IMG/VR virus record: IMGVR_UViG_2861058914_000003
Strand: one strand, 5' to 3'
Length of the DNA: 43,448 bases
Origin: a virus
Lineage: Duplodnaviria > Heunggongvirae > Uroviricota > Caudoviricetes
Below the pieces are notes generated by a model. That model was given only the letters and a program-made list of their open reading frames with translations, had not been told where the DNA came from and did not search any database. A program made the translations under genes and the position numbers. Position 1 is the first letter of the stretch; every line of letters starts with the position of its first letter. This document shows, piece after piece, positions 9,003-15,044 of the stretch.

Positions 9003-9251
9003 AGCTAAAGTATTAGCTTAAAAATAAAGTATACCTAGCGAATATAATCTAGGACTAGTTGTAACGCCCGAAATGATTGATTGCGTGAGCAACAAAATTT
9101 TTCTTCCATTGTTGTGAAATCATTTAGCCATAAAGTTTATGCAGAGATTTTATTTTATTTTTGAGTTGATTTTTTTGTAACGAGCTGTATATTTCGCGCC
9201 TCTTGTCATACCAGTTATTTTTTTCATTATATTCATAACGTTGATTGAACT

Positions 9252-12200
9252 ATGACCACTGTGAATAAAAAGTTAAAAAAAACTGCATCTGGCGCGATTA
9301 CATGGTCGGTAATTGTTACCCAGATATTATCTCCAGTTTCTCTTTCTTTGATCCCAGCAAACAGTTTTGCATCATCTGGTAATAAAGATGTTACGCAAAT
9401 TTATGCCAGCGATGAGCATGCAAATAAAGTGGCCTCATTTGCAGCAAGTGCAGGTCAGAGCCTGGCGAATAATAATGCAAGTAGTTTTGCTGTAAATACT
9501 TTATCAACTCAGGCGACAAAAGAGGTCGTCGACTGGTTGCAACAATATGGCAATGCGCGCATCAAGCTTAATGTCGATGATTCTTTTTCCTTGAAGGATT
9601 CATCATTCGACTTTTTATATCCATGGCTGGATACTCAGGATTATGTGTTATTCAGTCAGACATCACTACATCGTACTGATGACCGAAATCAGACCAATAT
9701 TGGTTTGGGGATTCGTCATTTCACTCCTGATAACGCAATGTTGGGTGCGAATGTTTTCTATGATTACGATTTAAGTCGTAGTCACTCTCGTGCAGGTTTT
9801 GGGGTTGAGTACTGGAGGGATTATTTCAGGCTTGGTGTAAATACCTATTTTGGTCTATCTGACTGGAAGAACAGTCGTGATATTGATGATTATCTGGAAA
9901 GACCTGCAAATGGCTGGGATTTTTCTGCTGAAGGATGGCTACCTGCTTATCCGCAATTAGGGGCATCTATTCAGTTTGAAAAATATTATGGTAAAAATGT
10001 CGGGTTATTTGGAAGCGATAACCTGCAGGAAAACCCTTACGCAGTTACTGGGGGAATTTCTTATACACCAGTTCCTCTGATTAAGTTTTCTGCACAGCAT
10101 AAGCAAGGACAGAGCAACACTCACGATACAACCTTTGGTGTTGAGTTTAATTATCGCCCGGGCGTTTCCTTGGCTGAACAGCTTAGCAGCGATAATGTTG
10201 CAGTTATGCGAGAAGTCCAGAACCGGCGTTATGATTTTGTTGAACGAAATAACAACATTGTTCTGGAGTACAAGAAGAAGCATGCACTGAAAATCAGTTT
10301 GCCAGAGTCTGTTCAGGGGGAGGGGAAATCAATCATCCCTGTAACACTGACAATCAACAATGCTAGTGGTGGTATCAAGTCTGTACAGTGGAATGATAGT
10401 GCATTCACTGCGGCTGGCGGCAAGATCAGTGGAAATGGCACATCATGGCAGATCACTTTACCGGCTTATAAAAGCGAAGGTGTAAATTCGTGGAATGTTG
10501 GAGCCACAGTACAGGATAACAGAGGCAACGTTTCCAACTATGCCGTGATGAATATTAGCGTTACTGATAGTGGTGTCTCGACGGCTGATTCGTCTTTTAC
10601 ACTGGATGGAGATTCGTCGCCGACAATCTCTGCTGATAGCCAATCCACTTATCCGATAGTATTAAGCCTGAAAGATAGTAACGGTAAGGCATTAACCGGA
10701 CTGGCTGATGACATTGAAATGTCAGTGGAATTTACAGCAGATAGCAATAGTGCTCGACAGCGTGAAACGGTAACTGCTCCGTCATTAGGCGCGGTAGAGG
10801 AAATCTCTGCTGGGGTATATCGCTCTGTTCTGACTGCTGGTTCGCAGGCTGGTACGGTACGTGTAACTGCAAAAGTTCAGGGAAAAACCTTTACTCTGAA
10901 TATTAAGCAGGCAGCCATTACTGATAGTGATGTATCGACAGCTGATTCGTCTTTTACACTGGATGGAGATTCGTCGCCGACGATCTCTGCTGATAGCCAA
11001 TCCACTTATCCGATAGTATTAAGCCTGAAAGATAGTAACGGTAAGGCATTAACCGGACTGGCTGATGACATTGAAATGTCAGTGGAATTTACAGCAGATA
11101 GCAATAGTGCTCGACAGCGTGAAACGGTAACTGCTCCGTCATTAGGCGCGGTAGAGGAAATCTCTGCTGGTGTATATCGCTCTGTTCTGGCTGCTGGTTC
11201 GCAGGCTGGTACGGTACGTGTAACTGCAAAAGTTCAGGGAAAAACCTTTACTCTGAATATTAAGCAGGCAGCCATTACTGATAGTGATGTATCGACAGCT
11301 GATTCGTCTTTTACACTGGATGGAGATTCGTCGCCGACGATCTCTGCTGATAGCCAATCCACTTATCCGATAGTATTAAGCCTGAAAGATAGTAACGGTA
11401 AGGCATTAACCGGACTGGCTGATGACATTGAAATGTCAGTGGAATTTACAGCAGATAGCAATAGTGCTCGACAGCGTGAAACGGTAACTGCTCCGTCATT
11501 AGGCGCGGTAGAGGAAATCTCTGCTGGGGTATATCGCTCTGTTCTGGCTGCTGGTTCGCAGGCTGGTACGGTACGTGTAACTGCAAAAGTTCAGGGAAAA
11601 ACATTTACTCTCAGTATTAAGCAAACAGCAACAACAGAACCTGATTCTGAGGTCAGTGCTGTTTTAACCGCTGCACCAGCAGAACAGGTAGTTGGTTACA
11701 ATATCAATCTACAACTGGCAGTGAAGGATTCACAAGGAAATGCAATCACTGGTGATAACACTCTGAGCTTTTATGCTCTTAACCAGGCAGAAGGAGTCGA
11801 GTTTGGGACTGTAACGGAAAAAGACGGTGTCTATAGCGCGACAGTAACTTCAAAACGAGCTGGTAAGATTACTATCGGTGTTAAATCTGATAGTCATGAT
11901 TTCTCAGGTGTTAAGAAAGAAATCACCTTTATTGAGGACCGGCAGCAGGTTACATTCTCTCAGTTTGAAGCCAGCCAAAATAATGCATTGGCTGATGGAA
12001 AACAGAGAAATATGGTAACTGTAAGCCTTGCGGACCGTTTCGGCAATGTTGTTCCTGGTTATGCTGTCACATTGTCTTTACCAGCAGGGATAACTCAAGT
12101 TGGTGGTGAACATGCTGTTTCAACTGACGAAAATGGTAATGCTATTTTTGCGTTAATAAGCTCCACTCCGGGGTCTTACGTGATTACAGCTCATGCTGGT

Positions 12201-13556: not shown

Positions 13557-14597
13557 CAGGTTAGCGTTTGGGTTTTGTTGTTGGGGAGCTGTTTTTATAG
13601 GCGCTCCCAGGTTTTTAGTAAACCACTCAACGACTCTGTTTATAATAATTGGCTGATACCATGTCTTATCGCCATGCTCGGCCCCTTCTACCAGCACGTA
13701 CTCAGCGTTATCACCGTTCTTCTTCAACATCCTGAATAGTTTGGCGCTTTGCTCAGGTGAAACCAGAGTGTCTTTGCTACCATGCATAATAAGAAATGGG
13801 GGTTTTACTCCTTTCATATGTCCGATTGGACTGGCGTTTAGCGCTTTTTCTTTTGACGCTGTGATGGGGGCTCCCGCAAAATTTCTGAATGCAGGGCCAT
13901 TGATCATTAAGGCTTCGGTTACGGCAGGAGAGCGATGAACCTCCTGCACTGATTCAGGGAACCCCTCGCCAATATTCAACAAGTCAGAAATCCCATAAAG
14001 TGTGGCAACTGCCTGAACATCTGAGGATTGCTGAAGAAAGTCACCTTTATCAAAGGTTTTGTCACCATTTGTAGTTCCCATCATCTGGGCAAGCCATCCA
14101 CCGGCAGAGTCACCCAGAACTCCGATTCTTTGAGGATCAATCCCATAATTGCTGGCATGCTCTCTCAGGTAACGTATTGCAGCTTTTCCATCCTCAACTG
14201 GTGCTGGAAATGTATCAGGAATTGTTCTGTATTCTACAGCGGCCACAACAAAACCAGCTTCTGCCAGAGCCATTCTCATTTCAATAAATTTGTCATGTTC
14301 AGAAGACATGAATCCGCCGCCGGGATAATAAATAATGGCTGGTTTTAAATCATTTGTTCGCGGGACAAGAACTGACATGTGAAGCTGTCTGACAGAACGA
14401 GTTCCTTTTATCTGGGAATAAACAACATCACCAATGAGATCGACCTGGTTTCTGGTCGGTGAAACACTAATGATATCTGCACCCGGGGTGTAACCAGGAA
14501 GATTAGTCTGGACAGGTGTTGCACAACTCCCGACCGACATGGCCATTGACATACCATACAATAGTGTTGCAGATGATAATATCTTGTTAATTTTCAT
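13554..14597 (-). CDS. Alpha/beta-hydrolase esterase/lipase (HSL/GDSAG family), probable lipoprotein
   Basis: 347-aa ORF with oxyanion-hole motif YPGGGF and nucleophile elbow GDSAGGW. N-terminal signal peptide with a lipobox-like MSVGSC. Confidence 0.8.
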   Translation of the reverse strand: MKINKILSSATLLYGMSMAMSVGSCATPVQTNLPGYTPGADIISVSPTRNQVDLIGDVVYSQIKGTRSVRQLHMSVLVPRTNDLKPAIIYYPGGGFMSSEHDKFIEMRMALAEAGFVVAAVEYRTIPDTFPAPVEDGKAAIRYLREHASNYGIDPQRIGVLGDSAGGWLAQMMGTTNGDKTFDKGDFLQQSSDVQAVATLYGISDLLNIGEGFPESVQEVHRSPAVTEALMINGPAFRNFAGAPITASKEKALNASPIGHMKGVKPPFLIMHGSKDTLVSPEQSAKLFRMLKKNGDNAEYVLVEGAEHGDKTWYQPIIINRVVEWFTKNLGAPIKTAPQQQNPNANL

Positions 14598-15044
14598 GTT
14601 TTACATGCCTTGACTTATCGGATGAAATTCTCTTACTAAATTTAACGGCAGTTTAATAGCCGTACAACTCGTGGTAGCCAGGGAAATATCCCAGTCGTGG
14701 TTAAGGTTGTACTTGACGGCTATTATTTCAACAATGCTTAAAGTGAGAGCTTAAGGTTATGCGTATGTTTTACAGTCCGAGTAGATTCTGACCAATAGCT
14801 TCTTTGTATAATTCTGTCAGAAATAAATCTTGGCTTGCATGAAGTTTGAGACCTTATCTTGTTTGATTATGAATAATCAATTCGCCATAATTGTATCACC
14901 GGAGCCTGAACAACTCCGGTGACTTCTGCGCTAAACGGGGACGTTTATGCGCACACACAATCCAAACTCTCTTCTCCCTTCACAGATGCAGAAATGCACC
15001 TGCGTTTTTTTGCATCTAGCGTCTGACCTCTGTGGAGGTGAAGC

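Follow-up and report, generated by a model that had tools for sequence, protein, structure and literature searches.

The inverse autotransporters of the intimin-invasin family reach the bacterial surface by the type Ve secretion mechanism, and FdeC, invasin, and intimin are members that act in adhesion. FdeC (EaeH) has been studied as a vaccine antigen; according to Nesta and colleagues, in 2012, it reportedly binds collagen and has a role in colonization of the urinary tract. ST131 is the dominant multidrug-resistant lineage of extraintestinal Escherichia coli. Here, we analyzed the virus record IMGVR_UViG_2861058914_000003 of IMG/VR, a stretch of 43,448 nucleotides (hereafter the window) that we assign to a lambdoid prophage of this lineage and in which two convergent genes separate replication gene P from the nin genes, one encoding an FdeC-like inverse autotransporter (the adhesin) and the other a putative exported esterase. 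In their survey of E. coli inverse autotransporters, Goh et al. distinguished seven groups, all at fixed chromosomal sites, and scored the ST131 reference strain EC958 positive only for fdeC, iatA, and iatB (Goh et al. 2019, PMC6714894). EC958 nevertheless carries the adhesin gene, at 1266117-1270382, and the EC958 genome papers do not mention it. A preliminary description of the window knew of no inverse autotransporter reported at such a position, and our literature search by topic and protein accession, in which not all journals were covered, likewise yielded no description of either gene or of an inverse autotransporter in this place.

Positions 1-41874 of the window are 99.993% identical to EC958, and on this alignment the host element is a lambdoid prophage beside icd, adjoining the sit operon, in E. 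coli ST131. Its genes are ordered int, xis, exo-bet-gam, repressor, YdaT-like, O, P, cargo, ybcN, ninE, ybcO, rusA, ylcG, Q, lysis genes, iss, and lambda-like head and tail genes. The two open reading frames (ORFs) of the cargo were recovered as first described, at 9252..13517 on the plus strand (1421 residues) and at 13554..14597 on the minus strand (347 residues), mutually convergent, and their placement between P and the nin genes was borne out, with O and P to the left of both and ybcN/ninB to the right. The cargo region is 100% identical in many E. coli chromosomes, mostly from human isolates. Based on the comparisons presented below, we consider it probable that the region holds two independently acquired accessory cassettes (morons), inserted in a variable slot between P and ylcH of the ST131 icd prophage.

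The adhesin had been described as an inverse autotransporter of the invasin/intimin family, and a hidden Markov model search agrees: Pfam IAT_beta (PF11924) covers residues 57-334 (E = 5.6e-101, 338 bits for a cutoff of 22.3, profile positions 3-279 of 279), and the passenger is matched by Big_1 (187 bits in 5 stretches) and Invasin_D3 (205 bits in 8 stretches). Among solved structures, the barrels of invasin (4E1T, E = 9.9e-74) and intimin (4E1S, E = 6.8e-63) align over 245 residues, and residues 342-441 align with intimin domain D00 (6TQD). The protein presents the inverted topology, with a signal peptide at about residues 1-40 (a basic and then a hydrophobic stretch ending in SFA/SS, as read by eye from the sequence), an N-terminal β-barrel at residues 57/97-341, and about ten immunoglobulin-like (Ig-like) domains from residue 342 to the C terminus; neither LysM nor a lectin domain was detected in Pfam, PDB, and profile searches. 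On these matches, the adhesin is a member of the inverse-autotransporter (intimin-invasin, type Ve) family. Its scores are below the NCBIfam equivalog cutoffs of the named members, namely, in bits (score/cutoff), IatC 388/2400, intimin 330/1400, SinH 318/999, Ilp 312/1125, YrIlm 305/750, Cronobacter Inv 284/710, and YchO/YchP 268/508, and its identification as fdeC, iatC, sinH, or intimin was ruled out by sequence identity, by locus, and by all NCBIfam cutoffs being missed. RefSeq annotates it generically as an "inverse autotransporter beta domain-containing protein," and PHROGs holds it as two families of unknown function.

The adhesin resembles FdeC in length (1421 and 1418 residues), in a collinearity that extends over 1351 residues with 32% identity and about 60% identity in the barrel (the latter read off the alignment), and in a passenger of Big_1-type Ig domains, with no LysM or C-type lectin cap detected in either protein. 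The solved FdeC fragment was not among the PDB matches of the adhesin at E ≤ 1e-5. The two proteins differ in several respects: nucleotide identity is 66-67% and restricted to part of the barrel, although fdeC is still the nearest E. coli paralog at the DNA level; fdeC lies beside ykgR/ecpR on the chromosome, whereas the adhesin gene occupies the prophage slot between P and ybcN; near-identical 119-residue tandem repeats of variable copy number are a feature of the adhesin; and its last ∼105 residues fall outside the main BLASTP alignment, among the alignments listed. An orthology with fdeC was rejected, given the 32% amino acid identity and the different locus.

Relatives that carry only one of the two genes indicate that the ∼6-kb region, initially taken for a single insert, is two independently acquired cassettes. 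When 9003-15044 was compared by megablast with 50,697 phage records, mostly of isolated phages, the match was confined to 13550-15044 in eight records, with 99.1-99.2% identity (Lambda_4C10, 4A7 in two records, D2, 1W, 3W, PhiR47_2, and Perceval), and the segment that they share comprises the esterase gene, its upstream spacer, and the leader of the nin region. The slot of 4A7 reads P - ren - emrE/qacE - small ORF - ybcK recombinase - esterase - ybcN. Prophages with the adhesin only (P - adhesin - ylcH - ybcN) occur in strains KTa008 and A1_136, in different chromosomal positions and with different immunity regions, and seven of the loci that we compared hold the adhesin gene without the esterase gene. 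The slot is covered from end to end in 23 E. coli IMG/VR loci, which all read P - adhesin - (esterase or nothing) - ybcN, and six further ones break off inside or just after the adhesin gene. The adhesin was found in no isolated phage: megablast and tblastn of the 50,697 records yielded only the esterase, one misfiled Salmonella contig, and one 2.1-kb fragment.

Comparison with related prophages mapped the boundaries to a few base pairs. In pairwise alignments, the adhesin-only loci match the window from P as far as 13556 and then again from 14903 onward. The match to 4A7 breaks off at 8992, the point at which ren would come next, and is restored at 13550. The joint of the two cassettes is a 7-bp overlap, CTTTTTA, at 13550-13556. 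Next to it lies a hairpin with a 9-bp G+C-rich stem (13529-13549), flanked on both strands by T runs in a terminator scan, which had been read as a bidirectional terminator shared by the two genes. The hairpin, GGGAGGGC-NNN-GCCCTCCC, and its T run are kept 3′ of the adhesin gene in adhesin-only prophages, whereas the ...CTTTTTACAGG with which the esterase gene ends, likewise present in 4A7, is preceded there by another hairpin (GCCCGCATAAGTGCGGGC); the terminator is therefore the adhesin cassette's own. At the other end of this cassette, the region 9003-9251 is continuous with the adhesin gene in adhesin-only prophages.

The preliminary description had proposed one functional pair, and we weighed the possibility that the adhesin and the esterase form a co-adapted module acquired together, in which the esterase would, for example, prepare a glycan surface for the adhesin or process it. 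The two genes are indeed adjacent and convergent in the 447 of 5426 complete E. coli genomes that hold at least 80% of 9003-15044 in one place, as well as in most IMG/VR loci, and both products are predicted to be exported to the cell envelope. However, either gene is found alone in phages that are similar in other respects, the 7-bp overlap next to a terminator is what one expects of secondary recombination, no esterase accompanies the adhesin orthologs of Citrobacter or the partial locus of Escherichia albertii within the DNA examined, and orthologs of the esterase are common across genera in which an adhesin of this kind was not encountered. A joint acquisition thus appears quite unlikely to us.

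By the same alignments, the variable slot that the two cassettes fill is bounded on one side by P and on the other by the ylcH-ybcN(ninB) leader of a nin region of the DLP12/phage-82 type. This slot holds ren-emrE-ybcK-ybcL-ybcM in PhiR34_1, which is the DLP12 arrangement, and other small genes in Turner, and in none of the 50,697 phage records are the end of P and the leader less than about 900 bp apart, so that no insert-free site with P joined to the leader came to light. Since the contents of the slot vary and it is never empty in these records, the position is a general cargo site of this phage lineage; the cargo does lie between P and the nin genes, where ren and ninA-type genes were said to sit in lambda, but the position is not special to this pair. 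The lower guanine-plus-cytosine (G+C) content that had marked the region as AT-rich is real but modest, being 0.44 in the adhesin gene, 0.449 in the esterase gene, 0.301 in the spacer 9003-9251, and 0.379 in the spacer 14598-14861, compared with 0.505 in O-P, 0.499 in the nin genes, and 0.512 in the whole window. The moron-like layout stood up on two counts: presence or absence at the same position, with three states of the slot in addition to the DLP12-type cargo, and deviating composition, with genes at 0.44-0.45 and spacers at 0.30-0.38 for flanks of about 0.50.

Of the noncoding flanks described as AT-rich and belonging to the insert, 9003-9251 and 14598-14861 stand, but 14862-15044 is a conserved leader of the nin region. 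The leader contains ylcH (orf33), 33 codons at 14947-15048 that overlap the start of ybcN and are annotated as a coding sequence in one of the loci compared, a promoter-like site at 14863-14891 (TTGATT-17-CATAAT), and, inside the ORF, a hairpin with a T run (14984-15007). The leader is shared, at 83-92% identity, with phage 82, Turner, several PhiR phages, and HK639, is conserved in DLP12-type phages as well, and recurs in thousands of E. coli genomes. For the homologous stretch of phage 82, record X92588 annotates orf33, -35/-10 signals, and a "possible regulator-binding site," and the leader could be a regulatory element of the nin region. The features of the slot and of its cargo are collected in Table 1.

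Table 1. Features of the P-ybcN slot, its two cassettes, and its flanks (positions in the window)
Feature	Position	Strand	Size or composition	Remarks
Replication gene O	7285-8304			Left flank, upstream of P
Replication gene P	8301..9002	+		Pfam Phage_lambda_P, E = 3.4e-61; conserved left flank of the cargo slot
Adhesin upstream region	9003..9251	+	30% G+C	Two promoter-like sites, 9166-9193 and 9203-9230
Inverse autotransporter (type Ve) adhesin gene	9252..13517	+	1421 aa	
Three tandem 357-bp repeats in the adhesin gene	10561..11623	+	119 aa each	Each repeat is one Ig-like unit
C-terminal tip domain of the adhesin	13152..13514	+	aa 1301-1421	Divergent Ig-like, restricted to this lineage
Intrinsic-terminator hairpin and T run	13529..13556			GGGAGGGC-TTA-GCCCTCCC; 3′ end of the adhesin cassette
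Putative exported alpha/beta-hydrolase, BD-FAE family	13554..14597	-	347 aa	Assigned from Pfam BD-FAE, PHROGs, and PDB relatives
Esterase upstream noncoding region	14598..14861	-	38% G+C	Accompanies the esterase gene in phage 4A7
Conserved nin-region leader, not cargo	14862..15044	+		33-codon ORF, promoter-like site, hairpin
ybcN/ninB homolog	15045..15500	+		Pfam NinB; RefSeq "DNA base-flipping protein YbcN"; conserved right flank of the slot

The repeat units of the adhesin gene differ from each other at 6-11 of 357 positions; Tandem Repeats Finder reports a period of 357, 3.0 copies, and 98% matches at 10561-11623. Their copy number differs between strains, from 1 to 4 overall, with 1, 2, or 3 in the loci examined, and a large protein collection contains adhesins of 1302 residues (the commonest length, one such sequence being found on more than 1000 contigs), 1421 residues, and 1540 residues, so the rod length shifts by whole Ig-like units. 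The passenger exists as two divergent alleles, about 99% and about 87-91% identical to that of the window. Between E. coli alleles, the ratio of nonsynonymous to synonymous substitution rates (dN/dS) amounts to 0.15-0.19 for the gene as a whole and stays under 0.4 in each segment; the gene is under purifying selection and is therefore maintained. These values bear on the notion that the two genes are decaying, nonfunctional passengers of a defective prophage, for which one could invoke the tail-fiber genes of this prophage, annotated as pseudogenes in EC958, the insertion of an IS3-family element near the right end of the copy in the window, and the lack of expression of many autotransporters under laboratory conditions (Goh et al. 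2019, PMC6714894). Yet both ORFs are intact, the low dN/dS holds across all parts of the adhesin, the catalytic residues of the esterase are invariant, and full-length copies are present in hundreds of genomes on several prophage backbones, which makes decay very improbable.

The C-terminal tip of the adhesin stands apart from the rest of the passenger. Against Pfam, it gave a marginal Big_1 match only (E = 0.061), and a profile search of the PDB gave a weak match to 4UID, a chain deposited as "surface layer protein" (E = 0.0014); a C-type lectin cap is unsupported. In a search of 1.84 billion representatives, which returned 46 matches in all, those that reach the final ∼70 residues were limited to one protein, four short fragments, and three much weaker partial matches, and a word-indexed protein search with the C-terminal 222 residues retrieved one fragment only. 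The tip is conserved in the Citrobacter orthologs. A structure predicted for the 222 residues with no alignment had a predicted local distance difference test score (pLDDT) of 35 and was discarded. It is conceivable, though we rate it as rather unlikely, that the adhesin acts in E. coli as a lineage-restricted, phage-disseminated colonization factor, in which a variable-length FdeC-like rod would present a rare tip to a specific host or dietary ligand and which, in ST131, might cooperate with the esterase or be switched on by prophage induction. If true, a temperate phage would directly tune the adhesion of a pandemic clone.

The genes are not rare, as they are annotated in hundreds of genomes and already figure in PHROGs. 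The barrel-coding part of the adhesin gene is present in 558 of the 5426 complete E. coli genomes, and, together with the 447 genomes mentioned above, this indicates that about 8-10% of complete E. coli genomes carry the adhesin. Full-length orthologs with 56% identity are encoded by two metagenomic viral contigs, the DNA of which is 95-99% identical to Citrobacter portucalensis A60, and more divergent copies reside in the genomes of two other Citrobacter species, with DNA 86-88% identical to that of A60. In these five Citrobacter and metagenomic loci, the conserved block (about 7460-11560 in each) consists of the gene and a few hundred base pairs upstream, about 4.1 kb, and its flanks vary (a P2-like integrase, another integrase, a P4-like primase, or iol genes), with no P-nin slot; the block apparently either occupies a hotspot of integration or is mobile as one unit there too. 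In the type strain E. albertii NBRC 107761, a homolog about 80% identical over its first 237 residues (8001-8711 of the locus) lies directly downstream of the core operon ydcSTUV-patD, a chromosomal, nonphage context, and the contig ends inside the gene. The simplest reading of these contexts is that lambdoid phages of E. coli captured a chromosomal enterobacterial adhesin gene.

The product of the second cassette had been described as a GDSAG-type esterase lipoprotein, of which the exported serine esterase is well supported by the sequence comparisons and the lipoprotein is only probable. Pfam BD-FAE matches with E = 5.7e-45 (153.9 bits for a cutoff of 26.8), Abhydrolase_3 matches as well, and PHROGs lists the protein as phrog_3341, "esterase," whereas no NCBIfam equivalog cutoff is reached and the RefSeq annotation is the generic "alpha/beta hydrolase." Its PDB relatives are the metagenomic lipase/esterase 6NKF (E = 1.6e-37), the Bacteroides GH43-carbohydrate-esterase (GH43-CE) fusion 6MLY, and the acetyl-xylan or carbohydrate esterases 6XYC and 6TKX. 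In a 15-member alignment, the nucleophile motif G162-D-S164-A-G-G, D276, H308, and the oxyanion motif P92-G-G-G-F are invariant, and 14 of the 15 homologs have a hydrophobic N-terminal leader, read as a signal peptide, the remaining one lacking those columns. The leader ends in ...AMSVGS-C25, which resembles a lipobox with Gly at position -2, off the strict consensus [LVI][ASTVI][GAS]C; anchoring as a lipoprotein is plausible.

Orthologs of the esterase with 63-72% identity are found in Pectobacterium, Dickeya, Pantoea, Kluyvera, Klebsiella, Rhizobium, and Variovorax, and several metagenomic relatives reach 75-80%. One Dickeya ortholog is named "ferulate esterase" by its source, and another source annotation among the relatives is "acetyl esterase/lipase." By analogy with these relatives, the substrate is likely a carbohydrate ester and, since the orthologs are chromosomal enzymes of plant-associated Enterobacterales, probably acetyl or feruloyl esters on carbohydrates of the envelope or the gut lumen.

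In our current working hypothesis, cassette 1 (about 8993-13556) consists of an AT-rich upstream region, the gene of the FdeC-like inverse autotransporter, and its own intrinsic terminator. We infer that the adhesin is expressed from the repressed prophage: it would be exported by Sec, its N-terminal 12-strand barrel would be inserted into the outer membrane by the β-barrel assembly machinery (BAM), and the passenger, threading the barrel in a hairpin conformation, would emerge as a rod with about ten Ig-like domains, the length of which would be altered between strains by gain or loss of the 119-residue repeat. The likely outcome for the lysogen would be adhesion or biofilm formation via this rod. 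Cassette 2 (13550 to about 14861), in the opposite direction, would supply a Sec-exported, probably lipid-anchored serine esterase that, anchored or free in the envelope, would deacylate carbohydrates. Exchange of the cassettes themselves would proceed, as it commonly does in lambdoid mosaics, through recombination within the conserved flanking sequences.

Several observations weigh against this hypothesis, and expression is its weakest point. In the sources searched, neither expression nor phenotype data were found for either gene. The promoter-like matches upstream of the adhesin gene are consensus-level only and no more frequent than in shuffled sequence, and none passed a simple promoter scan of 14598-14861 for the esterase. 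The early rightward operon runs in the same direction as the adhesin gene, and read-through from pR at induction may provide additional transcription or even the main part of it. The tip has no fold recognizable as ligand binding in profile and Pfam searches, and the label "adhesin" therefore rests on family analogy. The lipobox of the esterase is noncanonical (V-G-S-C), and its cysteine is found in only 3 of the 15 aligned proteins, i.e., the E. coli protein and its two closest relatives. Finally, we found no convincing direct or inverted flanking repeats to account for the movement of the cassettes, an absence that fits an exchange through conserved flanks.

The orientation of the adhesin gene also raises the possibility that it serves the phage, being transcribed with the early operon and altering the cell surface so as to block superinfection, mask receptors, or clump cells for the released virions. 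The gene directly follows P in the orientation of O-P-nin-Q, its position is fixed in every E. coli copy examined, and lambdoid phages do carry surface-modifying accessory genes, this prophage having iss as well. We nevertheless judge such a role improbable: an AT-rich upstream region of its own and a strong terminator are the signature of an autonomous unit, close relatives are chromosomal in E. albertii and outside phage early regions in Citrobacter, neither the adhesin nor the esterase matches a PADLOC defense family, and the adhesin occurs in 0 of the 50,697 phage records.

Elsewhere in the prophage, a Bor-family lipoprotein gene (18715-19008, minus strand; Pfam Lambda_Bor, E = 1.1e-30) lies just past the lysis genes and is annotated in RefSeq as the serum-survival gene iss; this bor homolog is a second, already known lysogenic-conversion gene of the same prophage. 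Between iss and the terminase genes, an odd accessory gene, a 108-residue ORF (19489-19815, plus strand), encodes a TonB C-terminal domain alone (E = 7.3e-13). Where lambda has cII, a gene at 6749-7288 (plus strand) specifies a protein with a YdaT toxin domain (Pfam E = 9.2e-30) in place of a CII-type regulator, and the Rac prophage is similar in this respect. The side tail-fiber genes, at about 39590-41610 of the window (EC958 1296458-1298479), are annotated in EC958 as two truncated pseudogenes, and fully functional virions may not be made by the prophage. The G+C content falls to about 0.41-0.43 around 40.5-42 kb of the window. A 1250-bp IS3-family element at 41875-43124, with two overlapping transposase ORFs (HTH_Tnp_1, rve) and 27-bp imperfect terminal inverted repeats, is absent from the EC958 prophage; it interrupts a small hypothetical gene near the right end of the prophage, and the matches that flank it overlap by 3 bp, consistent with a target duplication.

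Both proteins are uncharacterized members of well-known families and imply no new mechanism. What the locus adds is a second FdeC-like surface protein, prophage-borne and present in about a tenth of complete E. coli genomes, that is missing from the published catalog. The prevalence in ST131, the kinship with FdeC, and the repeat-length polymorphism make the adhesin a testable candidate for differences between lineages in adhesion, biofilm formation, or immune recognition and a useful lead in extraintestinal pathogenic E. coli. The locus is also a clean example of how lambdoid cargo is assembled, with cassettes swapped in one slot, each ending in its own terminator, and with the relatives of one cassette being ordinary chromosomal genes in sister species.

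Compared with Yersinia invasin and with the intimins of enteropathogenic and enterohemorrhagic E. coli (EPEC/EHEC), the adhesin has a homologous barrel, an intimin-D00-like first passenger domain, and Ig domains of the invasin D1-D3 type, but the integrin- or Tir-binding C-type lectin tip and the LysM domain of those proteins were not detected in it. With YrInv and YrIlm of Yersinia ruckeri, it shares near-identical tandem Ig domains in the passenger, a trait noted by Goh et al. (PMC6714894), and its barrel matches the YrIlm N-terminal model at E = 6.5e-91, yet it falls below the family cutoff (305 versus 750 bits) and belongs to another host and another genomic context. IatA-D, YeeJ, and SinH are of the same secretion family, but they occupy fixed chromosomal positions (PMC6714894), whereas the adhesin is prophage cargo and reaches the cutoff of none of the models. 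As the over-expression of IatB, IatC, and IatD led to surface display and biofilm formation (Goh et al. 2019, PMC6714894), these results offer the best functional analogy for what the adhesin may do. The esterase resembles the BD-FAE esterases (bifunctional feruloyl/acetyl-xylan esterases) in a profile score above the cutoff, a Ser-Asp-His triad, and a GGG oxyanion motif, and it differs from the exported esterases of Dickeya, Pectobacterium, and Pantoea in being carried by lambdoid phages in E. coli and in a lipobox-like cysteine that is absent from most relatives. As a whole, the cargo resembles the lambda morons bor and lom and the emrE-ybcK-ybcL-ybcM genes of DLP12, which are variably present accessory genes of deviating composition between conserved modules, and the DLP12-type cargo even occupies the same physical slot. 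The locus departs from the known lambdoid morons in that its cargo includes a 4.3-kb gene for a type V secretion adhesin, a kind of cargo that was seen in none of the phage records searched.

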